From assembly GCA_021774445.1 (NCBI GenBank), contig JAJFJA010000059.1, positions 155,830 through 219,829 on the forward strand: 64,000 nt of DNA, read 5' to 3'. A program made the translations under genes and the position numbers. The first letter of the stretch is position 1. Each line of letters starts with the position of its first letter. The DNA is from Alphaproteobacteria bacterium. GTDB lineage: Bacteria; Pseudomonadota; Alphaproteobacteria; UBA6615. Below the pieces are notes generated by a model. It was not told the origin of the DNA, searched no databases, and worked only from the letters and a program-made list of their open reading frames with translations. This document shows, piece after piece, positions 6,414-47,616 of this stretch.

Positions 6414-7765
6414 TGGCACTCTGGCTCAGCCTTGGCGGCCTCGCGGCGGTCGTTCTGCTCCTGCTGTTGCGGCCTATGTTAAGCGCCGGCGGCGCCGTCG
6501 GGGCCAGCCGTGCCGAACACGATCTTGAGGTTTTCCGGGCTCAGTTGAAGGAGCTCGACCGCGACCGCGACCGCGGTTTGCTGCTCGAACAGGAAGCGGA
6601 GGCCGCCCGTCGCGAAGTCGAACGACGTCTCTTGGCGGCCGGTCAACGGGCCAGTCAAAGTCGCACCATGAGCACTTTTGATTGGCGCGGCCGAACGGCG
6701 CTTGCGCTGCTTCTCGTTATCGCCCTACCGGCCGCGGCGACCGCCCTCTATTTGTCTCTCGGCTCCCCGGGCCTACCCGGACAGCCCTTTGCCAGCCGCC
6801 CGGCGCCGGTCCAGACCGCGCAGGACGACGAGCGCCTCGCCGCCCTGGCAACTTTCGAGCAGCGCAGCCGCGATAATCCCGCCGACACCGCCAACTGGCT
6901 CAACCTCGGCCGTGTCCATTTCGCGCTTGGCCGTTATGAGGATGCCGCCGCCGCCTTCGCACGTGCCATCGACCTGACTGACCGCCACCCCGGGGCCGTG
7001 TCTCTCTACGGCGAGGCCTTGGTCTATGCGGCCGAGGGCTTTGTGACCGAAGGGGCCCGCACGGCTTTCGGCGACGCCCTGGCCGCCGATCCCAACGAGC
7101 CGCGGGCACGCTTTTACCGCGCCCTCGCCGACTATCAAGCCGGCCGCCGGGAGCGCGCTCTTGATGACTGGCTCGATCTGGCCAGCGGCGCCCCGCCGGA
7201 CGCGGTCTGGCTGCCGGCCGTGCGCGATCGCATTCGGGCGGTGGCAACTGAGTTAGGCTTGGATGCCGAGGCCTTGATTGCCGAGGCTGTCCCGCAAGTC
7301 GCCCAATTGCCGCCCGACCAGCAGCTCGAGCAAATCCGCGGCATGGTCGACGGGCTGGCCGCCAGGTTGGCGGACACCCCTGACGATCTCGAAGGGTGGC
7401 TGATGCTCGGCCGGTCATATTTGGTTCTGGGCGAGCCCCGCAACGCCGTGGACGCTCTCGGCCGCGCCGCCGAGCTGGCGCCGGACCGGCCGCAAATCCT
7501 CGCCGCCCTGCTCGTCGCCACAATCACCGCGGCCGAGCAAGACCCGGCCCTTGCCGAAACCATCCCCGCACTGACCGACCGCGTTCTGAACCTCGACCCC
7601 GACAATGTCGACGCCCTTTGGTTCGCCGGCCTGGCCGCCGAACGGTCCGGTGACCCTACCGGCGCCGAAGCCTATTGGCGGCGTTTGCTGGCCCTATTGC
7701 CCGCCAGCGGCGAAGAATATCGCATCGTCACCGGCCGCCTCGACGCCCTAGCACGACCGCGCTAG
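6413..7765 (+). CDS. ccmI: cytochrome c-type biogenesis protein CcmI/CycH (TPR repeats)
   Basis: N-terminal TM plus TPR-like repeats (NWLNLGRVHFALGRYEDAAAAFARAI; GWLMLGRSYLVLGEPRNAVDAL); TAATG overlap with ccmH. Confidence 0.75.
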   Translation: MALWLSLGGLAAVVLLLLLRPMLSAGGAVGASRAEHDLEVFRAQLKELDRDRDRGLLLEQEAEAARREVERRLLAAGQRASQSRTMSTFDWRGRTALALLLVIALPAAATALYLSLGSPGLPGQPFASRPAPVQTAQDDERLAALATFEQRSRDNPADTANWLNLGRVHFALGRYEDAAAAFARAIDLTDRHPGAVSLYGEALVYAAEGFVTEGARTAFGDALAADPNEPRARFYRALADYQAGRRERALDDWLDLASGAPPDAVWLPAVRDRIRAVATELGLDAEALIAEAVPQVAQLPPDQQLEQIRGMVDGLAARLADTPDDLEGWLMLGRSYLVLGEPRNAVDALGRAAELAPDRPQILAALLVATITAAEQDPALAETIPALTDRVLNLDPDNVDALWFAGLAAERSGDPTGAEAYWRRLLALLPASGEEYRIVTGRLDALARPR

Positions 7766-34077: not shown

Positions 34078-34515
34078 TTACGGCATGCGATGCGGCCGGG
34101 CGGCAATGTTGTTGGCGGCTTGCAGTTCGCGCACATACACCACGATCGCGGCGATTTCCTGATCGCTGAGCCCTGGCTGCGGCGGCATGTTCCCGTATGG
34201 CCAGTGATGCTGAGGCACCCCTTGCCTGACGGCGCGAAAGAAGGCGGCATCGCCATGATGGCCGGGGTTATAAATGTCGTGGACAAAAGGCGGCCCCTTG
34301 TCGGTACCGGCGGCGTTCTGGCCATGACATTCGGCGCAGGCCGTGTCGAAGGCGATCTTGCCGGCCGCCGCTACTGGCGAAAGCACGGGAAGCGCAATCT
34401 CCTTCCCATCCGCATCGCCCGCCGATGGCGCCAGGATTTTCCAGGCGACTGTGATCACACCCGCCGCGACGACCCCCAAGACCAGGATGGCCGGTAACTT
34501 TCCACCAATTTTCAT
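34078..34515 (-). CDS. mono-haem c-type cytochrome, membrane-anchored
   Basis: CAECHG haem-binding motif, N-terminal TM/signal. Confidence 0.75.
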   Translation of the reverse strand: MKIGGKLPAILVLGVVAAGVITVAWKILAPSAGDADGKEIALPVLSPVAAAGKIAFDTACAECHGQNAAGTDKGPPFVHDIYNPGHHGDAAFFRAVRQGVPQHHWPYGNMPPQPGLSDQEIAAIVVYVRELQAANNIAARPHRMP

Positions 34516-35264: not shown

Positions 35265-35816
35265 TCAGCCGATCGAAACCAGATCGTTCTCGGCAAACTT
35301 GTAGGGCGGCACCACGAGGTTCCTCGGTGCCGGTCCTTTGCGGATCCGTCCCGAGGTATCGTAATGCGAAGCATGGCAGGGGCAGAACCAGCCGCCCCAG
35401 CCGCCGAGCGGATCGCCGACCTTCTGGCCCAAGGGTATGCATCCCAAATGGGTGCATACCCCGACGACGATCAGCCACTCCGCTCGCTGAACACGGGCAC
35501 TATCGAGCTCCGGATCCTTGAGATCGGCGCTGTCATCCTGCCTTGCCCGGGCGATTTGCTCTGCCGTGCGGTGATCGACGAACACCGGTTGCCCACGCCA
35601 GACAATGGTCACCCGCTGACCCACGGCGATCGGCGCGAGGTCGAGTTCAGTGGTCGCGAGCGTGCGAACATCGGCGGCCGGGTTCAGGCTGTCGATGAGG
35701 GGCCAAATGGCGGCGGCCGTCGTGACCGCCGCCATCGCGCCCGTCATCACATAGAGAAAATCGCGGCGGGTCTCAGCCGGCTCGTGCCCTGGGGGAACCG
35801 TTTGAGTCGCGGACAT
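35265..35816 (-). CDS. Rieske [2Fe-2S] protein (PetA-like ubiquinol-cytochrome c reductase iron-sulfur subunit), orphan
   Basis: boxes CTHLGC and CPCHAS, Tat-like RRDFLY N-terminus; no petB/petC adjacent. Confidence 0.8.
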   Translation of the reverse strand: MSATQTVPPGHEPAETRRDFLYVMTGAMAAVTTAAAIWPLIDSLNPAADVRTLATTELDLAPIAVGQRVTIVWRGQPVFVDHRTAEQIARARQDDSADLKDPELDSARVQRAEWLIVVGVCTHLGCIPLGQKVGDPLGGWGGWFCPCHASHYDTSGRIRKGPAPRNLVVPPYKFAENDLVSIG

Positions 35817-35830
35817 TTCTGCCGCTCCTG

Positions 35831-36907
35831 TTAACCGCCGACCCCCTGGACCATCTGGTGCCCCCTGCCGCCGATCGGGATCGTCCCGACAACGACCAGA
35901 TCTTGCTGGTCGACCACCCAGATATCCGGCTGGTCGGCGCTCGAGACATAGAGCCTGCCGGTACCGTCGACCGCGGCAAGGTGATAGGGCGCGGGGGCTA
36001 GCGAAGCCGCGCGGCGCGCCGCCGTTTCGAGATCGATCGCAACCAGTTCGTCCTGCCCGCGGGCACTGACGAACAGGGTGTCGCCGTTCTGCGATAGGTC
36101 GATGCCGTGTAACGCACCACCGATGTCGAAGGTCCGCACGGTCGCGCCGCTATCCGTGGCGAGCTCCGAGACCGTGCCGTCGTCCACATTGGCGACATAA
36201 AGCCTGCGCCCATCGGCCGACAGCACCATATGCTCGGGGCTAACACCGGCCTTCATTTGGCGATGGATGGTCCACTGCCCGGTATCGACTTCGCTGACCG
36301 TGTTGTTGCCGGCATTGCTGACAAAGACATCTTCGCTGTCGGGACTAAATACCGCGTAGTTCGGCAGCGGTCCGGTCGCAACGGTCGCGACGACACCGTA
36401 GGACGCCAAGTCGATGACGCTGATCCCGCCCTCGCTGGGCTGGGTGACGACGGCGAATCGGCCGTTCGGGCTGACCGAAACATGGTGCACGGCACCCGGC
36501 ACGTCGATGCGCCGCACCACGGACATATCCGCGGTCCGTAACACTGACACGGTGCTGACGACCGCACCGTCCTTTTGAGCATCGACCGGCGCCGCGCTAT
36601 GGTGCGCATCGTGCTCATCCGCGGTCACGCTGGACGGTTTTTCAGGCGTCGCACTGCCGGGCTCGCGGTCCTCGAAACTACCGGCGATCAGGAAGGCGCC
36701 GTCGGGCGTCTTGGCGAGACCGTGCACAGCCGCAACACCGCCTATGGTGTCGACGATTTCATCCGTTGCGGCATCGACGACGACGATCTTGCCATCGCTG
36801 CCGAGCGGCACATATACCAGTGGCTCGGCGAAAGCCGTTTGCATTGCCAGCATGAGCGTGACCGCGCCGGGCCATGCCACGGTTCGGACAAGCGATACGG
36901 TTTTCAT
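35831..36907 (-). CDS. secreted YVTN-family beta-propeller repeat protein with His-rich insert
   Basis: repeated beta-propeller blades (LYVANVDDGTVSE, VFVSNAGNNTVSE, LYVSSADQPDIWVVD), signal peptide, DEHDAHHSAAP segment. Confidence 0.6.
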   Translation of the reverse strand: MKTVSLVRTVAWPGAVTLMLAMQTAFAEPLVYVPLGSDGKIVVVDAATDEIVDTIGGVAAVHGLAKTPDGAFLIAGSFEDREPGSATPEKPSSVTADEHDAHHSAAPVDAQKDGAVVSTVSVLRTADMSVVRRIDVPGAVHHVSVSPNGRFAVVTQPSEGGISVIDLASYGVVATVATGPLPNYAVFSPDSEDVFVSNAGNNTVSEVDTGQWTIHRQMKAGVSPEHMVLSADGRRLYVANVDDGTVSELATDSGATVRTFDIGGALHGIDLSQNGDTLFVSARGQDELVAIDLETAARRAASLAPAPYHLAAVDGTGRLYVSSADQPDIWVVDQQDLVVVGTIPIGGRGHQMVQGVGG

Positions 36908-36958
36908 AACTTTTCTCCATTTTCTGTGGGTGAATTCCTGCACGCCGGCGGAGTCCTT

Positions 36959-39322
36959 CTAGATTTCGACCGAGCGCAGGCGCAGCGCGTTGCCGACCAC
37001 CGATACCGAGGACAGGCTCATGGCCGCGGCGGCGAAGATCGGTGAGATAAGAATGCCGAAGAACGGGAACAGGATGCCCGCCGCCACCGGCACGCCGGCG
37101 GCGTTGTAAACCAGCGCGAAGAACAGGTTCTGCTTGATATTGCGCATCGTTGCACGGGCCAGACGCCGGGCCCGCACGATGCCGTTGAGGTCGCCCTTCA
37201 CCAGGGTAAGACCCGCGCTCTCTATGGCTACGTCGGCGCCGGTGCCCATGGCGATGCCGACGTCCGCCTGCGCCAGTGCCGGCGCGTCGTTGACGCCGTC
37301 GCCGGCCATGGCGACCTTCCGGCCCTCGGCCTGCAACTCCTTGATGATACGCGCCTTGTCCTCAGGCAACACGTCAGCGCGAATTTCGTCGATCCCCAGC
37401 CGTCCAGCCACCGCCTTCGCCGTGCGCTCGTTGTCGCCGGTCGCCATCACGATGCGGAAGCCTTCCTTGTGCAGCGCTTTCAGCGCCGCCGGTGTCGTTT
37501 CCTTGACCGGATCGGCGACCGCCACCAGGCCGGCGATTTCAGAGCCGACGATGACGAACATCACGGTTTCACCTTCGTCCCGCCGCGCATTGGCGCTCTC
37601 GGAGAGTCCGCCCCCATCGAGGCCCAGATCAGCAACCAACGTGGCATTGCCCAGCGCTACGGGCTTGCCGTCGACGATGCCCTTGACCCCTTTGCCGGTG
37701 ATCGCCTCGAATTCTTCAGTCTTGGCCAACGCGACCCCACGCGCCTCGGCGCCGCTGACGATCGCCTCGGCGAGCGGGTGCTCCGAACCCCGCTCCAAAC
37801 TTGCGGCCAGGCGCAGCACCTCGGCCTCGTCATGGCCGGTCTCGGGCAAGATGGCAACGAGCTTCGGTTTGCCGACGGTCAGCGTGCCTGTTTTGTCGAC
37901 GATCAGCGTGTCAACCTTGGCGAACCGCTCTAACGCTTCGGCGTTCTTGATCAGCACACCGGCTTGGGCGCCCCGGCCGGTCGCCGTCATGATCGACATC
38001 GGCGTCGCCAGGCCCAACGCGCACGGGCACGCAATGATCAAGACCGCAACCGCCGAGACCAGGGCGTAGGCGAGCGCCGGCGCTGGTCCCCAGAAGGACC
38101 ACACGACGAAGGCGACGGCGGCGATAGCGATCACCGCCGGTACGAACAGGCCGGCCACGGAATCGGCGAGCTTCTGGATCGGCGCCCGACTACGCTGCGC
38201 GTTCGCGACCATCTCGACAATTTGGCTGAGCATGGTGTCGGCGCCGACGCGTTTGGCCTCCATCACCAGGCTACCGGTCCCATTGATGGTGGCGCCGGTG
38301 ACCTTGTCGCCCTCGACCTTCTCGACCGGCACCGGTTCGCCGGAGATCATCGACTCGTCGACCGATGAGCGACCTTCGACCACGACGCCATCGACCGGGA
38401 CCTTGTCACCCGGACGCACGCGCAGCCGGTCGCCAACCTGTACGTCTTCAAGCGGAATTTCCTCCTCGCGTCCGTCGGCGCGGATCACCCGCGCGGTTTT
38501 CGCGGCGAGATCCAGCAGCGCCCGGATCGCCGAACCCGTGCGCTCGCGCGCGCCAAGCTCCATCACTTGGCCAAGCAGGACCAGAACGACGATCACCGCG
38601 CCGGCTTCGAAATAGACGCCGACATTGCCCTCCGGATCGCGGAAACCATCCGGAAAAATCCCCGGCGCCAGCACCGCCACCACACTGAAGAGATAGGCCG
38701 CGCCGACACCCATGCCGATGAGCGTGAACATGTTGAGACTGCGGTTGATCACCGACTTGACGCCGCGCACGAAGAACGGCCTGCCGGCCCACAGAATGAC
38801 CGGTGTGCCCAAGGCCAGCTCGACCCAAAGCGTCGCCCGCTCACCCAGGATATCGCGCACGAAGCCGAGCCCGACGATGGGCCCCATGGTCAGCACGAGA
38901 AGCGGCACCGTCAGCACCGCCCCGACCCAGAACCGGCGCTTGAAATCGACAAGTTCCGGATTCGGTCCTTCGTCGGCCGCCGGAACGCCCATCGGCTCCA
39001 ACGCCATGCCGCAGATCGGGCAGTCGCCCGGTCCGTCGCGCATGATTTCCGGATGCATCGGGCAGGTATATTGGGTGCCCTCGGGCGCCGCCTCGCGCGT
39101 CTGTTCACCGGCAAGATAATGCGCCGGATCGGCGGCGAACTTGTCTTGGCATCCCTGACCGCAAAAGTGATAGGTCGTGCCATCGTGCAGGTAGCTGGGT
39201 TTGCCAACGTCCACTGGCACGGCCATGCCGCAAACCGGATCCTTGGCGGTCTTGTCGCCAACTAGGGTGGTCGCCGTGCTTCGCCGATGGTCGCTGTGAG
39301 CGTGGTGAGCTTTTCCATTCAT
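36959..39322 (-). CDS. copA: copper-translocating P1B-type ATPase (CopA-like) with N-terminal YHS/TRASH and CPxCG metal-binding domains
   Basis: DPVCGMAV...[12 protein letters not shown] (YHS/TRASH), CPMHPEI...CPICGM, TM CPC motif [25 protein letters not shown]. Confidence 0.85.
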
Positions 39323-39373: not shown

Positions 39374-39715
39374 TCAATCAGATAGCAACCGCCGGCGCTC
39401 TTCGAACTCTTCCTTGTCGATCTCGCCTCGGGCGAAGCGTTTTTCCAGAATGTCGAGGGATCGCGACCCGGACTCTTGGGATGCCGCATCTTGCGGCGAC
39501 CGGCCACCGAGCCAGCGCACCGCCAGTATGACCACGAGGATGAGCCCGCCCCAGAACAGCACCATCATCACCAGGCCGAACGCCATGTGTCCCCAGCCCC
39601 AGTCCCAACCCGGATGCCAGTCGTTCGGACCGGCGGCCGTCGCCTGGGCCAGGGCCGGAAACGCCGCCAGCGCGGCGGGCAGTGCCGCGAACTTATTAAT
39701 CAACGGTCTTAGCAT
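39374..39715 (-). CDS. membrane protein with C-terminal SHOCT domain
   Basis: TM (GLVMMVLFWGGLILVVILAV) plus SHOCT-like ILEKRFARGEIDKEEFEERRRLL; ATG at MLRPLINK chosen. Confidence 0.55.
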   Translation of the reverse strand: MLRPLINKFAALPAALAAFPALAQATAAGPNDWHPGWDWGWGHMAFGLVMMVLFWGGLILVVILAVRWLGGRSPQDAASQESGSRSLDILEKRFARGEIDKEEFEERRRLLSD

Positions 39716-39750
39716 CTGAAACTCCTTAGTGAACCGCGATCGCCTGGGCA

Positions 39751-40074
39751 CTAGGCCAGGCGCTTCGCGAAAAAATTGTAGAGCGGGCCGAAAACCAGCG
39801 CGATGTACCACCCGTAGGCGAATGTCTCGACCAGGCCGAGCACGAAGCTGCTCCAGCTTATCCAAGTGAAGCCGGGGAGCAGGGGCGACCACGCCGGGTT
39901 CATCGCCAGCGCGGGAAACCACAGATCGAACAAGACGCACAGCACGAACGTTAATGACAAGAACGACCCCAGGCCCGCGCCCAAGGCGACGATCGGGATG
40001 TAGGGGACTCTGCGCGCCGGCAACGGCGTGCCTGCGCGCGCGGGTGGGTCGTTGGCGAACGCTGTTTCACGCAT
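39751..40074 (-). CDS. small polytopic membrane protein of unknown function
   Basis: three predicted TM helices; start ATG overlaps stop of upstream YHS gene by 8 nt (ccATGcgTGA); alternative start at 40107. Confidence 0.4.
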   Translation of the reverse strand: MRETAFANDPPARAGTPLPARRVPYIPIVALGAGLGSFLSLTFVLCVLFDLWFPALAMNPAWSPLLPGFTWISWSSFVLGLVETFAYGWYIALVFGPLYNFFAKRLA

Positions 40075-40411
40075 GGGAATGCTCCAATCTTGGCTGTTCA
40101 GGGTCACCGCCGCTCACATACAGATCGGGGGCCGCTTCGAAGACCTCGCGGCACTCGCGTGAGCAGAAGTAGTAGACGTGGCCAGCGTGAACACTGGGTT
40201 TCGCCCTGTCGGTCGTCACTGTCTTACCGCAAACCGGATCGGTATCCGTTTTCGGCGGTACCCAGCGGAGCTCGGCGTTGTCCTCTTGACCGCACCTGCC
40301 GCCCGCTTGGCCAGCGCCGTGGCCGCGCCCCATGATGTGCGCGCCACAGCCGACGCGCATCATCAGGAAAATGAGCGCGCCCCAGAAGGCGAAATAGAGT
40401 AAAGCTTCCAT
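40067..40411 (-). CDS. membrane-anchored YHS/TRASH-domain metal-binding protein
   Basis: N-terminal TM (LLYFAFWGALIFLMM), Gly/His-rich spacer, YHS motif DPVCGKTV...YYFCSRECREVF. Confidence 0.6.
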   Translation of the reverse strand: MEALLYFAFWGALIFLMMRVGCGAHIMGRGHGAGQAGGRCGQEDNAELRWVPPKTDTDPVCGKTVTTDRAKPSVHAGHVYYFCSRECREVFEAAPDLYVSGGDPEQPRLEHSHA

Positions 40412-40460
40412 CCCAGGTTCCTGCGTTTCAGCTTAGGTGGCCGCTGGCCACGCCGGTCAC

Positions 40461-40994
40461 TTATGGCTCGACGCGCTGCAACTGCCCGGTATGCCGGTCG
40501 ACCTCGAAACGCTCGACCAACGAGCCGTCGACGGTGGTGATGTCGGCGGTGACCGTGTCGCGGTCGACCTCCGTGACCTCGCCGACCGTCAGACGGCTGT
40601 TGCCGTGTCTCTCAAGACTATGCTCGAGGAAATGACGCACATCGTCCCCGGAAAGATCCTTGCTGGGGACCACCGGTCCGCGAAACCCGAACCCTGCGCC
40701 CCCCGAGCCCATCATGCCCTGGGGACCTTGGTCCGATCCCATCATTCCGGAACCCATCATGCCCTGGGTGCCAAAGCCCGGCCGCATCATGCCTTGATCA
40801 CCCATGCCTGGCGCTGCCACATTCGACCGGCCACCGCGATGACCGAACTGACCCTGGTCCATATGGGTCAACCCGGTGGGCGATCCCGCCTTGACGTTAC
40901 TGTGACCGCCGGCGGCAAGACCGGGACTAGCGAGCAGCGCAAGCGCCCCCAATCCGCCGATTGCGGCCACTGCCGATTTGCGAAGCTGTGTCAT
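40461..40994 (-). CDS. secreted Met/Gly-rich protein with C-terminal PepSY-like domain
   Basis: signal peptide, repeats GMGDQGMMRPGFGTQGMMGSGMMGSDQGPQGMMGSG, C-terminal VGEVTEVDRDTVTADITTVDGSLVERFEVDRHTGQL. Confidence 0.5.
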   Translation of the reverse strand: MTQLRKSAVAAIGGLGALALLASPGLAAGGHSNVKAGSPTGLTHMDQGQFGHRGGRSNVAAPGMGDQGMMRPGFGTQGMMGSGMMGSDQGPQGMMGSGGAGFGFRGPVVPSKDLSGDDVRHFLEHSLERHGNSRLTVGEVTEVDRDTVTADITTVDGSLVERFEVDRHTGQLQRVEP

Positions 40995-41165
40995 CGTGAT
41001 GCCTTTATGTCTGGTGTTTTCGAACACCCTCAATGTAGTAGGGCCGTGTCACGAGACGACCACCGGCGGGCGCCGTTTGGTAACGGACTGTCACAAGCCC
41101 GGGTCGAGTTATGGTCCGTTACAAATTTCTTCGCGGTCGTGGCGATGACGGGGTATTTTGCCTCC

Positions 41166-41915
41166 ATGAATGTTCCGGGGGCCGCCTTTGCGGCTCACAT
41201 ACTGGTCGTCGACGACGATCGCGAAATACGCGATCTGTTGGGGCGGTTCCTCACCAAGCACGGCTATCGGGTCACCGCGGCGCAGGACGGTAAAGAGATG
41301 CGCCGGGTCCTCGCGGACTGGAGCATTGATTTGGTTATCTTGGACCTCATGCTGCCCGGTGAAGACGGGCTGTCGTTGTGCCGGTATTTGCGGTCCCGAT
41401 CGCAGATCCCGATCATCATGTTGACCATGATGAGTGAGGAAACGGACCGCATCGTCGGGCTCGAGATGGGCGCCGACGACTACCTGCCAAAGCCGTTCAA
41501 CCCGCGCGAGTTGTTGGCCCGCATGAAGGCTGTGCTCCGCCGGGCGCAAAGCGCCCCCGCCGTGGCGGTCAACGGCAAACGGAAGATCCTGCGTTTCGCC
41601 GGTTGGAAGCTCGACTTGGGCCTTCGCCGGCTGGAATCTCCCACCGGGCTTGTGATCGACCTGACCGCCGGCGAGTTCGACCTGCTGGTCGCTTTTGCCG
41701 AGCATCCGCAGCGGGTGCTGAACCGCGATCAGCTCTTAGACCTGACCCATGGCCGGGCGGAGGCACCGTTCGAGCGCAGTATCGATATGCAGATAAGCCG
41801 CCTGCGTCACAAGATCGAGACCGACCCGAAGCAACCGGAATTGATCAAGACGGTGCGCGGCGGGGGTTATGTTTTTGCAGCAATTGTGGCGCCGGATGAA
41901 ACGCTTGATACCTGA
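41166..41915 (+). CDS. OmpR-family two-component response regulator
   Basis: receiver (ILVVDDDREIRDL...DLVILDLMLPGEDG) plus winged-helix output (LTAGEFDLLVAFAEHPQRVL); ATG inside ORF 40437..41915. Confidence 0.8.
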   Translation: MNVPGAAFAAHILVVDDDREIRDLLGRFLTKHGYRVTAAQDGKEMRRVLADWSIDLVILDLMLPGEDGLSLCRYLRSRSQIPIIMLTMMSEETDRIVGLEMGADDYLPKPFNPRELLARMKAVLRRAQSAPAVAVNGKRKILRFAGWKLDLGLRRLESPTGLVIDLTAGEFDLLVAFAEHPQRVLNRDQLLDLTHGRAEAPFERSIDMQISRLRHKIETDPKQPELIKTVRGGGYVFAAIVAPDETLDT

Positions 41916-43269
41916 GTCGATCGCCGCCCGAACCCTTGTCGTATTGATCGTTGGACTCACGGTGTCGCACATCCTGAGTGTCGGCTTGTATTTCACCGAC
42001 CGGACGAGCGCGCTCTTGTTTACCGGTGGCGAGCATATCGGCGAGCGCATCGCGACGATCGGTCGCCTCGCCGAAAATGCGTCGCCGGAAGAGCGGCAAC
42101 GTATCGCCGAGCTCGCGGATTCGACAGCGCTCCATGTCACGCTGAGCCAAGAAAGCGCCATCGACGATCAACAAGATGGCGGCTGGCAGGCAGTGGTTCT
42201 CCGTGATGCCTTGGTCGCCCACCTCGACGATGGGGGTCAACGGGGATTGACACTTCGCCATGCGGATGCGGACACCGTTGAAGTCTGGCGGGATCACCTC
42301 CGCCAAAATCATCAAGTGGAGTCGCTTGGTGAGACGTTTATGGCCTCGCTCCAATTGCCCGACAAGAGCTGGCTCAATTTTGCCGCGCCGGTCACCTCGC
42401 CCGAGTCCTTCTGGACGCTTCGTTTTGCCCTGTCGATGGCCGTGATGCTCCTCGCTGTGGGCATCTTGTCTGCCTTGGTCGTGCGTCATCTAACCAGGCC
42501 GCTGGGCACATTCGTGCGCGCGGCGCGGCGTCTCGGGCTCGATGTCAAAGCCCCCCCGCTGCCTGAAACCGGCCCGGCCGAGGTCCGACAAGCAGCGCAA
42601 GCGTTCAACGAAATGCAAAAACGCATTCGGCGTTTCGTCGAAGACCGGACGCAAATGGTGGCGGCTATCTCTCACGACCTGGGCACACCGATCACGCGCA
42701 TGCGGTTGCGGGCGGAATTCGTCGAGGACGAGGAGTTGCAAAAGAAGATGCTCGCCGACCTAGACGACATGGAAGAGATGGTTTTCTCCGCCTTGTCGTT
42801 CGCGCGTGACGAGGCCACCGACGAACCCAATGCAATGGTTGATCTCAGGACCTTGCTGCAGCGCGTTTGTGACGACATGGCCGACGCCGGTCATGCGGTT
42901 GTGCTGGATGTCGGCGACGATGCCGTGCCATACGGCTGCCGGCCGGTCGCGTTGCGGCGCGCCTTCGCCAACCTCATTGGCAATGCCGTCAAATACGGTC
43001 TTTGCGCGCGCGTGTCGCTGACCAACAGCCAGGACGCCATTCTGGTGACGATTGATGATGATGGCCCCGGAATTCCCGATGAGTTTCGGGAAGACGTTTT
43101 CAAACCTTTCCGGCGACTTGAGGTGTCGAGAAGCCGGGAAACCGGCGGCACGGGGCTCGGCCTGACCGTGGCGCGGACAGTTATCCGCGCGCACGGTGGC
43201 GACTTGACGCTGCTGAACCGTCGTGAAGGGGGCCTTCGGGTCGCGGTGCAATTGCCACGAAGCCTCTGA
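41896..43269 (+). CDS. sensor histidine kinase (two TM, periplasmic sensor, HAMP, HisKA, HATPase)
   Basis: H-box AAISHDLGTPIT, N-box IGNAVKY, G-boxes DDDGPGIP and GGTGLGL. Confidence 0.8.
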   Translation: MKRLIPESIAARTLVVLIVGLTVSHILSVGLYFTDRTSALLFTGGEHIGERIATIGRLAENASPEERQRIAELADSTALHVTLSQESAIDDQQDGGWQAVVLRDALVAHLDDGGQRGLTLRHADADTVEVWRDHLRQNHQVESLGETFMASLQLPDKSWLNFAAPVTSPESFWTLRFALSMAVMLLAVGILSALVVRHLTRPLGTFVRAARRLGLDVKAPPLPETGPAEVRQAAQAFNEMQKRIRRFVEDRTQMVAAISHDLGTPITRMRLRAEFVEDEELQKKMLADLDDMEEMVFSALSFARDEATDEPNAMVDLRTLLQRVCDDMADAGHAVVLDVGDDAVPYGCRPVALRRAFANLIGNAVKYGLCARVSLTNSQDAILVTIDDDGPGIPDEFREDVFKPFRRLEVSRSRETGGTGLGLTVARTVIRAHGGDLTLLNRREGGLRVAVQLPRSL

Positions 43270-43277
43270 AGTTGCGA

Positions 43278-44195
43278 CTACATGACAAAAGCCGCATCGA
43301 CGATCAGCGCGACAAAAACCCCCATCAGGTACAGGATCGAAAATCCGAAGGCGCGTTTGGCCCGGGCGTCATCGGGATTGCGCCACAGGTCAACCGCTAC
43401 GCCCAGATAGGCCAGGGCCAGCAGCAGGGCCATGGCGCCATAGCCGATCCCGGCGATCCCGACGATGACCGGCAAAACGGACAGCGGCACCAGGGCCGCG
43501 GCGTAGACGACCATCCGTCTGATTGTCGCTGCCCGGCCGGCGACGGCGGGCATCATCGGAATCCCCGCCCGCACATAGTCGTCGTTGCGATACAGCGCCA
43601 GTGCCCAGAAATGTGGCGGGGTCCAGAAGAAGATGATCAAGAACAGGCTGAACGAAGCGATGCTGACATCGCCGGTCACCGCGGCCCAGCCGATCATCGG
43701 CGGCAACGCCCCGGCTGCCCCGCCGACGACGATGTTCTGCGGTGTCCGGCGCTTGAGCCAGACCGTGTAGACCAGGATGTAGAAGGCGATCGTCAGCGCC
43801 AGCAACCCTGCCGCCACCCAGTTCACGACCAAACCCATGACCGAGACGGATATCGCCGACAGCGCCAAACCGACCGCGAGCGCTGCCCTCGGCGACACCA
43901 ATCCCGCCGGGATCGGCCGCCGACTGGTTCGTCCCATGATCGCGTCGATGTCGCGGTCATACCACATGTTGAGGGCACCGGCGCCGCCGGCGCCCGCCGC
44001 GATACAAAGGATCGCGACAACCATCAAACCGCCATCGAGCGATCCGGGCGCGATCGCCATGCCGACAAAGCCGGTAAAAATTACCAGCGACATGACCCGC
44101 GGTTTCAGCAACGCCCACACGCCCCACACCGTTTCCCTGGCGGCGGACCGCGTAAGACCGGTGCCTGTCGAAAGACCAGGGGCGATTTCTGTCAT
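43278..44195 (-). CDS. ctaB: protoheme IX farnesyltransferase (heme O synthase)
   Basis: UbiA-family polytopic protein with CtaB/CyoE signature (NMWYDRDIDAIMGRTSRRPIPAG). Confidence 0.85.
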   Translation of the reverse strand: MTEIAPGLSTGTGLTRSAARETVWGVWALLKPRVMSLVIFTGFVGMAIAPGSLDGGLMVVAILCIAAGAGGAGALNMWYDRDIDAIMGRTSRRPIPAGLVSPRAALAVGLALSAISVSVMGLVVNWVAAGLLALTIAFYILVYTVWLKRRTPQNIVVGGAAGALPPMIGWAAVTGDVSIASFSLFLIIFFWTPPHFWALALYRNDDYVRAGIPMMPAVAGRAATIRRMVVYAAALVPLSVLPVIVGIAGIGYGAMALLLALAYLGVAVDLWRNPDDARAKRAFGFSILYLMGVFVALIVDAAFVM

Positions 44196-44254
44196 GATGC
44201 TGATGGGCTCGATCTAGTTTTTTCAATGATCTCGGGTCGCAAGGGCCAACGCAG

Positions 44255-45376
44255 TTACATCTGCATGTCGCCCATTTCCATGCCCTCGGTCATCATCACG
44301 CCCATCATGCCGAGCTGCATATGGAACGGGAACATGCACATGAACATCCACAGACCGGGCTGCTCGATCTTCAGCACCGTTTCGAAGCTGTCGCCCGGCA
44401 TCACCAATGGATTCTCGAAAATCGCCTCATGTTCGGTCAGGTTCCAATCGGCCCGCTGGATGCGATAGCCGACGGACGCCATGCCCGGCCCGGTCATCAG
44501 CATGAATTCGTGCGGTATGTTGCCCCCGTTGGTAATGACGAACCGAATGACCTCGCCCGGCTCCACCATGATGGAACTGGGGCTGTAGCCCCATTCGGTC
44601 ATTTTCACTTCGATTGTCCGGGCGGCCGGCATTGCGGCCCCGGCGGCGACAAGCTCGATTCCGCCACCGCCTTCATGGCCTCCCTCGGCTGCCTCCGCCG
44701 CCTCCGCATGGTCCCCGCCGGCCGCTGTGTCGGCCATGTCCATCCCCGGCATTTGCGCGGCCGGCTGTTCGCCCGGCTGGTCCATCGCCATGGCCGGCGC
44801 CGCATCGGCTTCGGCAGCTTCCATTTGCCCCGATGTGGAGTCGCCCGCCACGCCCTCTGCCATTTGCATGACTTGGCCCGTCGCCGGACTATCCGAAGCC
44901 CCCGCCGCATCCTTGGCGGTCTCCATGACCATGCCCGGCATGGCTTGATCGTCGGTTGCTTCGGCGCTGCCCGCCTCCATCTGCATTGGCGCCGCCGCAT
45001 CGGTCGTGGCTGCTTCGTCCGCCATTTGCATGACTTGCGGTTCGTCCGGCTGGTCCATCGCCATGCCTTCCATCGCGTCGCCCGCGTCGCCGCTTGGCTC
45101 GGCGGCGCCCATCGTCATGCCGGGCATCGCGGTCATTTGTGCCGCCAGTTCTTCGGCCAGATGCTCGGCGTCCGTCGCCGGCAGCTCGAAGACGTCGTGG
45201 CCGATCTCGGTCGACAGTTTCCAGGCCTCTGCCGCCGGCATCAGCCCGGCTTGCCGGTAGCGGTCGATGGGCGTCTGCGCAGCCACCTGCGATGTCGGTA
45301 GCGGGGCCACGACGGTGAAATACCAGGCAACGCCAATGACCAGAATTCCGACAACCAACCACGCACGAACAACCAT
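44255..45376 (-). CDS. membrane-tethered azurin-like type-1 copper (cupredoxin) protein with about 220-aa Met/Ala/Asp/Glu-rich repeat region
   Basis: N-terminal TM (VVRAWLVVGILVIGVAWYF), two about 80-aa repeats rich in M-x-M/QM motifs, C-terminal cupredoxin with azurin-like ligand spacing (PHEF ... CMFPFHMQLGMM). Confidence 0.6.
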   Translation of the reverse strand: MVVRAWLVVGILVIGVAWYFTVVAPLPTSQVAAQTPIDRYRQAGLMPAAEAWKLSTEIGHDVFELPATDAEHLAEELAAQMTAMPGMTMGAAEPSGDAGDAMEGMAMDQPDEPQVMQMADEAATTDAAAPMQMEAGSAEATDDQAMPGMVMETAKDAAGASDSPATGQVMQMAEGVAGDSTSGQMEAAEADAAPAMAMDQPGEQPAAQMPGMDMADTAAGGDHAEAAEAAEGGHEGGGGIELVAAGAAMPAARTIEVKMTEWGYSPSSIMVEPGEVIRFVITNGGNIPHEFMLMTGPGMASVGYRIQRADWNLTEHEAIFENPLVMPGDSFETVLKIEQPGLWMFMCMFPFHMQLGMMGVMMTEGMEMGDMQM

Positions 45377-45395
45377 CCTTTCAGCCTCCCGATGT

Positions 45396-46973
45396 TTATT
45401 CCGCAGGTGCCGGCGTACCGGCGGGCACGGCGATATCGTCGCCCAGCTCCCACGGGTCGCCGCTGCATTCCCTGCCATGGCGCACGGTCAGCGCCAGATT
45501 GACCACGAAAACGAGGAATCCGAGGCCAATCAGATTGGCCGCAATGGTCAACACCATCTGCGGCGTCGCCCACTCGGTTAGCGGCAGGTAGTCGACGACC
45601 CATCGCGGGAAGAACACCAGACCCAGCAGGAACATCATCGTGACCTTGCCGAAGATGCCGATCTGCCAAAGCCAGAAATGCGCGTTGGCGAGGGTCTGGT
45701 TGTAATGGCGCCCGGTGATGTAGGGGTAGACGAAGTAGATGCCGGCGATCGCCATCTGCGCGCAAAAACCCAGGAACATCGCGTGGAAATGCGCCGGTAT
45801 CCAATAGGTGTTATGGATGAAATCGGTATCGATCGAGATTTGCGCATTAATGAACGCCGTTACCCCGCCATAGATCACGAAGAAGATCGCGCCGATCGCG
45901 AATTTGAACGGCACCGCCCGCCGCGCCGAGTCCGGGATGCGCCCCTGCCACAGCGAGGCGATCCAGTTGAACACATGCAGGGTGCTGGGAATGAAAATAA
46001 GCAGCGTGAGAATCTGAAACGCCCGCTGCACCCAAGTGTGCTCGGTCACGGCCGGCTGGAAGTGGTGATGGAAGACGACGAACGAGAGCAGGAACAGCGA
46101 TGAGAAGGCGATGATCGCCGACACGTGGCTCCACATCGGCCGCCCGAGGAAGCGTGGCAGCAGGCTATATAATATGCCGATCGCCGGGACGAAGGGCAGA
46201 TAGACCGCCGGATGGCCGTAGAACCAGAACATCCACAGGAATGTCTTCGTACTGCCCCCGGCGGCGGGATCGAACATCGCCGTCGCGCCGAGCCAATCCG
46301 TCAGCAACAGCGTGCCGACCAGGCTGAGGGCCGGGGTCGATATGACCAGCATGGCGCCCACCGTCAGCATCGCCCAGCCCATCAGCGGCATCGTCATCAG
46401 ACCGCCGCGCCAAGCCAGGGCGTTGCGGATCAGCATCACGCCGGCGAGGAATTCCGAGATGCCGACCAGGACGATCGCCAGATATCCCAGCCACACCAAA
46501 TCGCCGCCGACCCTTAGGCTCATCGGCGTATAGAACGTCCAGGTGAAGTCCGGCCGCCCGACGAGCAGCAATACCGCCGCCAGCGCCAGCAGCCAGTAGC
46601 TCCACTGCGCTAGCCCCGACCACAGCAGACCGTCCAGCTTCAGCAATTTCGGCATCAGGAAATAGCAGACCGACAGCGTCAGCGGGATCACGAAGCCGAA
46701 CACCATCAGCATGCCGTGCAGGGTCAGCAAGGTGATGTAGACCCGCGCCCCGAAATACTGAATGCCGGGAACCGCCAGTTCGGTCCGGAAGGTCAGCGCG
46801 AACAGCCCGGCCAGCCCCAGCATCACCAGCGAGGTGAGAATTCCCTTGATGGCGATGACTTGGTAGTCGTTCGAGAACAGCAGCTCCTTCAGCGTAAGCG
46901 TACCGAGCAGGTTTCTCGGCTGCCAATGAAGGGTTCTCGTCTCGGCAATCTCGTCTGCGGTCGGAAGCGCCAT
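45396..46973 (-). CDS. heme-copper oxidase subunit I, B-family (ba3-like)
   Basis: WFYGHPAVY, FHHHF, HNTYWIPAHFH motifs matching B-type subunit I; 12 or more TM. Confidence 0.8.
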   Translation of the reverse strand: MALPTADEIAETRTLHWQPRNLLGTLTLKELLFSNDYQVIAIKGILTSLVMLGLAGLFALTFRTELAVPGIQYFGARVYITLLTLHGMLMVFGFVIPLTLSVCYFLMPKLLKLDGLLWSGLAQWSYWLLALAAVLLLVGRPDFTWTFYTPMSLRVGGDLVWLGYLAIVLVGISEFLAGVMLIRNALAWRGGLMTMPLMGWAMLTVGAMLVISTPALSLVGTLLLTDWLGATAMFDPAAGGSTKTFLWMFWFYGHPAVYLPFVPAIGILYSLLPRFLGRPMWSHVSAIIAFSSLFLLSFVVFHHHFQPAVTEHTWVQRAFQILTLLIFIPSTLHVFNWIASLWQGRIPDSARRAVPFKFAIGAIFFVIYGGVTAFINAQISIDTDFIHNTYWIPAHFHAMFLGFCAQMAIAGIYFVYPYITGRHYNQTLANAHFWLWQIGIFGKVTMMFLLGLVFFPRWVVDYLPLTEWATPQMVLTIAANLIGLGFLVFVVNLALTVRHGRECSGDPWELGDDIAVPAGTPAPAE

Positions 46974-47013
46974 CGGTACCCCGTTCGTCTGCGAAGTTTG
47001 GTCTAAATGTCCG

Positions 47014-47616
47014 TCAGGACTCTGTCGGCGCGCCGTCGACCACCAGCCATGCCTTCATCTGCGAATGTCCGACGCCGCAATAATTGAGGCATTGGATCAA
47101 GTACTTGCCCGGCGTGTCCGGCGAGCGGATCCAGATGTGGCGGACGGCGCCGGGCTCGAACTCGGTCGTCATGCGGGCGGCGGGTATATTGAAGCCGTGC
47201 ACCACATCGTTCGACATGATCGTGAACAGCACCTTTTGACCCGGCGCTACTTTGACGGCGTTGCGGCTGGCCGCGCCGTTTTCGTCGACGAAGGCAAAAC
47301 CCCACTGAAAGGCGAAGACCCGGACCGTCCTGTCGAAGGCATCCTGGTCCTGTCCGGTGTCGGGGACCCCCGCGAGCGAGTCGCCTCTCGGCAGGTCCTT
47401 CTCATAGGCCGTAAAGGCGGCGGTGCTGCGCGCATCGGCAAATACCGCGAGCACCACGAGAAGCGCCGCGAAAAAGACTTCGATCCGGTAATGGAGTTGC
47501 CAGCGCCGTGGCCATAACAACGCCATGAACAAGGCCACGATCCCGGCACTCCCCAAGGCGATGATGATCGCAAACATCACGGCCTGATCGGCCATCAAGC
47601 CGAGCGCATTGAGCAT
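47014..47616 (-). CDS. heme-copper oxidase subunit II (short, B-family-like) with CuA site
   Basis: CuA ligands HGFNIP ... CLNYCGVGHSQM; two N-terminal TM. Confidence 0.75.
   Translation of the reverse strand: MLNALGLMADQAVMFAIIIALGSAGIVALFMALLWPRRWQLHYRIEVFFAALLVVLAVFADARSTAAFTAYEKDLPRGDSLAGVPDTGQDQDAFDRTVRVFAFQWGFAFVDENGAASRNAVKVAPGQKVLFTIMSNDVVHGFNIPAARMTTEFEPGAVRHIWIRSPDTPGKYLIQCLNYCGVGHSQMKAWLVVDGAPTES

Follow-up and report, generated by a model that had tools for sequence, protein, structure and literature searches.

Four conserved small genes in front of copA in an alphaproteobacterium: a coupled YHS-DUF5676 membrane protein pair as a candidate copper donor to the pump

The stretch of DNA analysed here (hereafter the window, 64 kb at its full length, with positions counted from its first letter) belongs to an alphaproteobacterium of the UBA6615 lineage (assembly GCA_021774445.1, contig JAJFJA010000059.1, positions 155,830 to 219,829). 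It carries four small genes in front of copA, which encodes a P1B-1 Cu(I)/Ag(I) P-type ATPase, and these four genes are real and widely conserved. The core of this cassette is a tightly coupled pair of uncharacterised membrane proteins that probably handle copper for the pump: a transmembrane (TM)-anchored protein with a YHS/TRASH domain (hereafter the YHS protein) and a protein of the DUF5676 family. We favour, with a probability of about one in two, the reading that the locus is a Cu(I)/Ag(I) export operon in which the YHS and DUF5676 proteins form a complex that acts as a tethered Cu(I) donor to CopA. The genes concerned are the following.

40461..40994 (-): secreted Met/Gly-rich protein, 177 amino acids (aa), ATG start, no Pfam or NCBIfam match
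40067..40411 (-): TM-anchored YHS/TRASH protein, 114 aa, PF04945 at 38.1 bits against a cut-off of 30.3 (E = 1.6e-9)
39751..40074 (-): DUF5676 membrane protein, 107 aa, PF18926 at 31.4 bits against a cut-off of 27.6 (E = 3.8e-7)
39374..39715 (-): SHOCT membrane protein, 113 aa, PF09851 at 30.3 bits against a cut-off of 27 (E = 3.2e-7)
36959..39322 (-): CopA, P1B-1 Cu(I)/Ag(I) P-type ATPase, 787 aa, TIGR01511 at 592 against a cut-off of 397

An initial annotation of the window had placed four small genes at 39374..40994, upstream of copA and on its strand, and all of these open reading frames (ORFs) are present, on the minus strand. An exact-sequence look-up finds identical protein boundaries on record for a 284-kb NCBI contig; independent gene calls thus agree, since the recorded proteins share exactly these starts and stops. 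A Shine-Dalgarno-like purine run lies ahead of every gene start. The ATG of the DUF5676 gene lies inside the end of the YHS gene, and the 8-nt overlap that had been reported there can be read directly from the sequence (ATGCGTGA at 40067..40074). The remaining intergenic gaps measure 49, 35, 51 and 15 nt, an operon-like spacing, and no terminator-like site was found in the minus-strand gaps. The YHS and SHOCT domains that had been recognised from the sequence alone both match their Pfam profiles above the gathering score, and profile assignment of the small TM proteins, which had been proposed as a check, places them in PF04945 (YHS), PF18926 (DUF5676) and PF09851 (SHOCT).

Conservation of the ORFs had been left as a point on which the initial annotation could fail. 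They are in fact conserved well past anything that chance would give: homologues number 179 for the Met-rich protein, 862 for DUF5676 and 871 for the YHS protein. Furthermore, a scan of one genome per species gave 274 stretches encoding DUF5676 relatives, from which 80 loci, mostly from alpha- and gammaproteobacteria, were kept; the counts of locus features given below refer to these 80 species-level loci. Single-linkage clustering of all ORFs in related loci served only for spotting recurrent neighbours, because it is noisy from shadow ORFs in GC-rich DNA. The YHS gene lies directly upstream of the DUF5676 gene in 69 of the 80 loci. The exact 8-nt junction (ATGNNTRA) is found in 62 of them and is replaced by a 4-nt junction (ATGA) in three others. 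The 8-nt junction is constant while its middle codon and its stop codon vary (ATGCGTGA, ATGCCTGA, ATGTTTAA, ATGCCTAG and ATGGCTGA, among others). Since the junction is kept despite this codon variation and the YHS gene lies upstream in most loci, the invariant unit is the YHS-DUF5676 pair. The other components are variable, modular accessories: a P1B ATPase (41/80 loci, or 37 of the 68 that have at least 4 kb of downstream sequence), the SHOCT gene (35/80), a divergent OmpR/histidine kinase pair (31/80), a YVTN beta-propeller (28/80) and the Met-rich protein gene (17/80). Where both SHOCT and ATPase genes occur, the former usually stands directly before the latter.

The combination of genes had been called unusual. 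This does not hold, since the order YHS-DUF5676(-SHOCT)-ATPase occurs in dozens of genomes and RefSeq annotation uses the same names; its parts fall into Pfam families that have names, and RefSeq already annotates the cassette. Alpha-, beta- and gammaproteobacteria of marine and soil origin widely carry the pair, including on plasmids, and plasmid DUF5676 genes lie in copper islands across these three classes. For instance, the gene order YHS, DUF5676, (ICMT), SHOCT and Cu-ATPase, with the same 8-nt overlap, is found on RefSeq plasmids NZ_CP030129 of Indioceanicola profundi SCSIO 08040 and NZ_CP011053 of Halomonas sp. KO116, and plasmid NZ_CP068711 of Burkholderia thailandensis AW34-19p has the order YHS-DUF5676-ATPase. 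Plasmid DUF5676 genes that are more distant also belong to copper islands. DUF5676 is followed by Cu-ATPase, DUF2933 and ICMT genes in Roseovarius indicus; it adjoins genes for a multicopper oxidase, DUF411 and DUF305 in Croceicoccus; and it ends the order (HMA)-DUF2933-DUF5676 near P1B ATPases in Polaromonas and Methylophaga. In Alteromonas, the order is merR-copA-cupredoxin-(small TM protein)-DUF5676-ICMT, and copA and merR of this cluster are induced by copper (PMC8478169).

DUF5676 and YHS genes also sit in a recurrent mobile 'stress island' of plasmids and genomes. This island contains genes for DUF3141, acetate kinase, phosphate acetyltransferase (PTA), PhaC, thiolase, ppk2 and ICMT, as well as for a petA-like Rieske protein, FtsH/HflKC, an extracytoplasmic function (ECF) sigma factor, CBS-domain proteins, phosphoketolase and a proton P-type ATPase. 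On a plasmid of Methylophaga thalassica (locus 6451..7210), genes for an HMA-domain protein and a DUF2933 protein overlap by 8 nt (6698..6705) and the DUF5676 gene follows directly; this layout parallels that of the window, here with two polypeptides, one for the metal-binding domain and one for the His-rich TM segment.

The YHS protein consists of a TM helix (residues ~3-18), a juxtamembrane motif (R19-x-G-C22-G-A-H25-x-M-G-x-G-H-G), a Gly/His linker and the YHS domain (PF04945, residues 57-100). Over 63 sequences, C61, C83 and C87 are at least 95% conserved, as is R19, located just after the TM helix; H25 is at least 90% conserved and C22 is conserved at 70-90%. The three Cys of the domain show the YHS Cys-ligand pattern C-x19-22-C-x3-C. 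Moreover, this free YHS domain is paralogous to the N-terminal YHS domain of CopA, with which it shares 47% identity over 49 aa (E = 9e-13), and its C61, C83 and C87 align with C31, C54 and C58 of the pump. A DUF2933 gene occupies the position before DUF5676 in Polaromonas and Methylophaga, which suggested that the N-terminus of the YHS protein might be homologous to DUF2933 (PF11666). This was rejected: four N-terminal segments have no match at E<=10 and hhalign gives a probability of 28% over 5 columns that cover the HxxGH motif only, while genuine DUF2933 proteins score 27-30 bits in the same profile test.

The DUF5676 protein, which the initial annotation had described as having three TM segments, has instead two TM helices and a hydrophobic loop. 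Pfam describes PF18926 as a '2TM family', the AlphaFold2 (AF2) model has helices at residues 28-52, 54-57 and 74-106, and hydropathy peaks cover residues 23-61 and 77-95. Over 60 sequences, conservation reaches at least 95% for C46 and D50, two TM1 residues separated by one helical turn, for M58 in the loop and for E83 in TM2, and a Trp/Tyr-rich frame is conserved with them. Topology was predicted by the positive-inside rule from Lys/Arg counts over the family alignments. These are 0.1 in the 3-aa N-terminal tail against 2.1 in the 15 aa past the helix for the YHS protein (N-out/C-in), 2.3, 0.8 and 2.3 for DUF5676 (N-in/loop-out/C-in) and 0.3 against 2.3 for the SHOCT protein (N-out/C-in). From this charge distribution, the YHS and SHOCT domains are therefore predicted to be cytoplasmic, and C46, D50, M58 and E83 of DUF5676 to lie in the outer half of the membrane.

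The copper setting that had been proposed for the small genes is well founded. CopA has the Pfam domains E1-E2_ATPase, Hydrolase, HMBD and YHS, of which the metal-binding YHS and HMBD are N-terminal. Its translation contains CPCALG (CPC, TM4), LVYNAAG (YN, TM5) and AMSLSS (MxxSS, TM6), and its TIGR01511 score exceeds the cut-off. There is no match to an HMA domain in CopA or in any of the four small proteins, and a scan of the ORFs around them, from 31309 to 55214, gave no CopZ-like gene with an HMA domain.

These elements can be assembled into the following mechanism. The cassette and copA would probably be transcribed as a single operon, presumably induced by copper, from a promoter controlled by an OmpR/EnvZ-like system through a 43-bp dyad. 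Since the 8-nt overlap would give roughly equimolar synthesis of the YHS and DUF5676 proteins, it suggests a 1:1 complex, which would be a three-helix complex of the inner membrane. In this complex, the cytoplasmic YHS/TRASH domain would bind Cu(I) through its three Cys and pass it on to the similar YHS domain at the N-terminus of CopA. DUF5676 would serve to anchor its partner or to set its orientation, and may supply an intramembrane Cys/Asp/Glu site. The SHOCT protein would be a second accessory membrane protein, with a His/Met/Trp motif at its periplasmic face; like the Met-rich protein, it would bind or buffer, on the periplasmic side, the Cu(I) that is exported.

This differs in part from the initial annotation, which saw in the small proteins periplasmic or membrane chaperones feeding CopA. 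The location proposed for the Met-rich protein agrees with its predicted secretion, and it is predicted to be the only one of the four that is wholly periplasmic; the YHS and SHOCT domains, by contrast, fall on the cytoplasmic side according to charge. Moreover, the Met-rich protein could not feed CopA because it is secreted, while CopA draws Cu(I) from the cytoplasm; a role in buffering or receiving Cu(I) that has been exported is more plausible.

The free YHS domain recalls CopZ/Atx1 chaperones, in that a free copy of the N-terminal metal-binding domain of the pump would act as Cu(I) donor, the two copies being here 47% identical. CopZ stands in the same relationship to the HMA domains of its ATPase. 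The likeness is functional only: the fold is TRASH/YHS rather than the ferredoxin-like HMA fold with its CxxC motif, and the protein is tethered to the membrane, unlike the soluble CopZ. Another parallel is the archaeal TRASH protein CopM of the Sulfolobus and Ferroplasma copTMA/copRTA clusters, a small protein with a TRASH/YHS Cys triad that is likewise encoded just upstream of a Cu-ATPase. CopM is co-transcribed with CopA, is induced by copper and has been proposed to be the copper donor to its pump (PMC3595675). However, CopM is soluble and has 56-71 aa, whereas the YHS protein is bacterial, TM-anchored and equipped with a Cys/His/Met juxtamembrane motif. Furthermore, unlike CopM, it has an obligate-looking two-TM partner, DUF5676, and a two-component system takes the place of CopT/CopR.

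The cassette also resembles the merR-copA-cupredoxin-DUF2933-ICMT islands of Alteromonas and other marine gammaproteobacteria (PMC8478169), which are mobile and combine a Cu-ATPase with small His-rich TM proteins; in the island of A. stellipolaris, a DUF5676 gene even stands between the gene at the DUF2933 position and ICMT. However, these islands have a MerR regulator, a cupredoxin and ICMT and lack the YHS, SHOCT and Met-rich proteins, and the N-terminus of the YHS protein from the window shares only the HxxGH motif with DUF2933. Literature searches did not find a description of a membrane-tethered YHS protein working with a Cu-ATPase, and searches on YHS chaperones and on SHOCT, YHS and copper together returned nothing relevant. 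For the delivery of Cu(I) to P1B pumps that lack an HMA domain, where there is no CopZ, the cassette offers a testable candidate: a tethered TRASH protein paralogous to a domain of the pump, made in fixed ratio with a two-TM partner that has intramembrane Cys, Asp and Glu. Current models are not overturned by this proposal, which fills in unnamed parts of copper islands. Besides this candidate, two further items come out of the analysis: a conserved sequence that would be the operator of an uncharacterised OmpR/EnvZ-like system, and a family of secreted domains for which Pfam has no model.

The features that bear on regulation lie on the other side of the Met-rich gene.

41080..41122 (no strand): 43-bp dyad, operator candidate in the divergent promoter region, with conserved GTNAC elements
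41166..41915 (+): OmpR-type response regulator (NCBIfam OmpR), divergent from the cassette
41869..43269 (+): EnvZ-like histidine kinase (NCBIfam EnvZ), divergent from the cassette

The dyad, located between the start of the Met-rich gene (40994) and that of the response regulator gene (41166), consists of GTAACGGACTGTCAC, a 13-bp spacer and GTTATGGTCCGTTAC, each arm being a direct repeat with 10-bp spacing. It is the sole match in the window, where none is expected by chance. Among 27 short intergenic regions taken from related loci, 25 contain one or more GTNAC-N5-GTNAC elements, and about half of them have both arms, inverted and with starts 28 bp apart. Moreover, the two-component genes are directly divergent whichever gene leads the cassette (Met-rich, YHS or DUF5676). 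The 43-bp dyad is a plausible, even likely, operator for the divergent OmpR-family regulator, which would bind it in tandem, and the OmpR/EnvZ-like pair likely regulates the cassette. Its response regulator and kinase score 143.9 against a cut-off of 279.2 and 112 against 292.6 for the heavy-metal subfamilies (TIGR01387/TIGR01386), with OmpR and EnvZ as best matches, and the periplasmic sensor domain of the kinase has no obvious His/Met-rich metal site.

The SHOCT protein has a signal-like N-terminus, a single TM helix and, by the predicted topology, a cytoplasmic SHOCT domain at its C-terminus (PF09851, residues 87-111 of 113). Where the TM helix ends on the outer side, it has a motif, W..GWGHM.FG..MM..FWG, that is at least 90% conserved in 18 distinct relatives from cassette loci. 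His, Met and Trp are the usual periplasmic ligands of Cu(I) and Ag(I). A SHOCT membrane protein of Haloferax is induced by silver, which is a loose parallel only (PMC10694973). SHOCT domains occur in some anti-phage defence systems; such a role of the SHOCT protein was considered and discarded, since PADLOC gives no match for any of the four small proteins.

The secreted Met/Gly-rich protein had been correctly recognised: it has a signal-like hydrophobic stretch (residues 8-28), and residues 41-110 include 10 Met, 22 Gly and four GMM motifs. GMM repeats rich in Met, like motifs of His and Met, are typical of proteins that bind Cu(I) and Ag(I) in the periplasm. The repeats exist as a peptide feature only, as no DNA tandem repeat was found behind them. 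In the AF2 model, residues 1-110 have a confidence score (pLDDT) below 50, and residues 111-177 score 88-95 and form one helix and four strands. The protein thus appears to comprise a disordered Met/Gly linker of ~70 aa followed by a conserved alpha+4-beta domain (residues ~111-177; 40464..40673 on the minus strand). A PepSY-like C-terminus had been suggested, which finds little support: no PepSY profile matches, no Pfam or NCBIfam family is hit at E<=0.1, and ten further family members scanned at E<=0.01 gave no PepSY match either. A search with the C-terminal domain returned 877 cluster representatives (at 50% identity) at E<=1e-3, one of which, a cadherin-repeat protein, is a spurious repeat match. 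A protein may contain one, two or three copies of the domain, with a Met-rich linker ahead of every copy, and in some members there is also a peptidoglycan-binding domain at the N-terminus, along with ~150-aa tracts rich in Met. Given these 877 representatives with Met-rich linkers and no Pfam or NCBIfam match, this is therefore a sizeable secreted family tied to Met-rich segments. Like SilE/PcoE, CusF, the cyanobacterial CopM and the Met-rich loops of CueO and CopA multicopper oxidases, the protein is secreted, has a mostly disordered Met-rich segment and is encoded in a copper/silver locus. Unlike SilE/PcoE-type binders, it has no family match and adds a folded alpha+4-beta domain at its C-terminus.

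Several observations weigh against a tethered donor dedicated to CopA. In roughly half of the related loci, a P1B ATPase gene is absent from the nearest ~6 kb, and hence the link of the pair to CopA is not obligatory. In Chromohalobacter, the pair precedes genes for a CDF transporter and ICMT, while its neighbours in Thalassospira and Aurantimonas encode DUF3141, acetate kinase, PTA and PhaC. There are also DUF5676 genes that stand without a YHS partner, and YHS-DUF5676 fusions were not found among the top 120 matches of either family. The conserved intramembrane C46, D50 and E83 exceed the needs of a simple anchor. Identity of the two-component system with CusRS/CopRS is ruled out by scores below the subfamily cut-offs. 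Lastly, a literature search found no paper mentioning DUF5676, and SHOCT has no known function (PMC3581485).

An alternative that we consider unlikely is that the two proteins alone make up a minimal conduit or relay for metal across the inner membrane, comparable to MerT/MerF. In this scheme, a site on the periplasmic side of DUF5676 (C46, D50, M58 and E83) would hand metal to the juxtamembrane Cys/His motif of its partner and from there to the TRASH domain, for uptake, for sensing or for shunting periplasmic Cu(I) toward CopA. The strong conservation of the four residues (at least 95%), with C46 and D50 one turn apart and a predicted position in the outer half of the membrane, would suit such a path, as would the conserved C22/H25/M27 motif at the inner end of the partner's TM helix; pairs without an adjacent ATPase would likewise suit an autonomous function. 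However, unless sensing is its purpose, import beside an exporter would amount to a futile cycle, and the three TM helices of a heterodimer would form a pore only in higher-order oligomers, the structural model being that of a monomer only. The pair also shows no similarity to known transporters, and no useful solved-structure relatives were found. With MerT/MerF, it shares the very small size of inner-membrane proteins, a membrane-embedded Cys combined with a cytoplasmic Cys site and a place in a metal-resistance operon; it differs by the lack of sequence relationship, by Cys/Asp/Glu ligands instead of Cys pairs, by its two polypeptides and by the absence of a reductase that would make import useful.

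The stronger claim that the pair is an unrecognised heteromeric Cu(I)/Ag(I) conduit or sensor, with a periplasmic Cys-Asp-Glu(-Met) site wired to the Cys/His motif and the TRASH domain, appears improbable. If true, periplasmic Cu(I) would be captured and fed straight to the entry site of CopA, or its presence would be signalled to the cytoplasm.

It is also rather doubtful that the YHS, DUF5676 and SHOCT proteins are regulatory or stabilising subunits of the ATPase instead of metal carriers, as KdpF is for KdpABC and as sarcolipin, phospholamban and FXYD proteins are for P2 ATPases. They are indeed small single- or double-pass proteins encoded right beside an ATPase, the SHOCT gene usually precedes copA immediately where the two occur together, and DUF2933, another small TM family, accompanies Cu-ATPases in the same islands (PMC8478169). 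Nevertheless, the conserved Cys triad, in a domain paralogous to the metal-binding domain of the pump, points to metal handling, and the pair often has no ATPase nearby.

Least probable of all is a cassette that is not specific to copper, serving another thiophilic metal (Zn, Cd, Hg or Ag) or an envelope or stress response, with the CopA neighbourhood as a by-product of the mobile stress island: copper specificity of TRASH/YHS domains is not proven, the EnvZ/OmpR-like system falls under the heavy-metal cut-offs, the contexts found in Chromohalobacter, Thalassospira and Aurantimonas would fit, and the same plasmid islands hold ppk2, FtsH/HflKC and a proton ATPase, but the neighbouring pump shows a complete Cu(I) P1B-1 signature, the Met-rich GMM repeats and His/Met motifs are typical of copper/silver binding, and most annotated plasmid contexts hold a Cu-ATPase, a cupredoxin, a multicopper oxidase, DUF411 or DUF305.

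The regions that flank the cassette encode further proteins. Past the two-component system, a four-gene cluster on the minus strand (43278..47616) includes a heme o synthase gene (43278..44195). It also has a gene (44255..45478) for a 407-aa protein with a long Met/Asp/Ala-rich region and a C-terminal cupredoxin domain weakly similar to CopI, and genes for subunit I (45396..46973) and subunit II (47014..47616) of a divergent heme-copper oxidase, whose scores are well under the equivalog cut-offs. This cluster is not conserved beside the cassette in related loci. On the other side, three genes lie downstream of copA in the same orientation.

35831..36943 (-): YVTN/YncE-like beta-propeller (Pfam YNCE and Lactonase, TIGR02276 repeats)
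35265..35816 (-): Rieske protein with a Tat signal
34078..34515 (-): cytochrome c

The propeller gene starts 15 nt downstream of copA and is the one found in 28 of the 80 related loci; the Rieske and cytochrome c genes are found in ~20 related loci each. The three proteins possibly form a periplasmic redox module.

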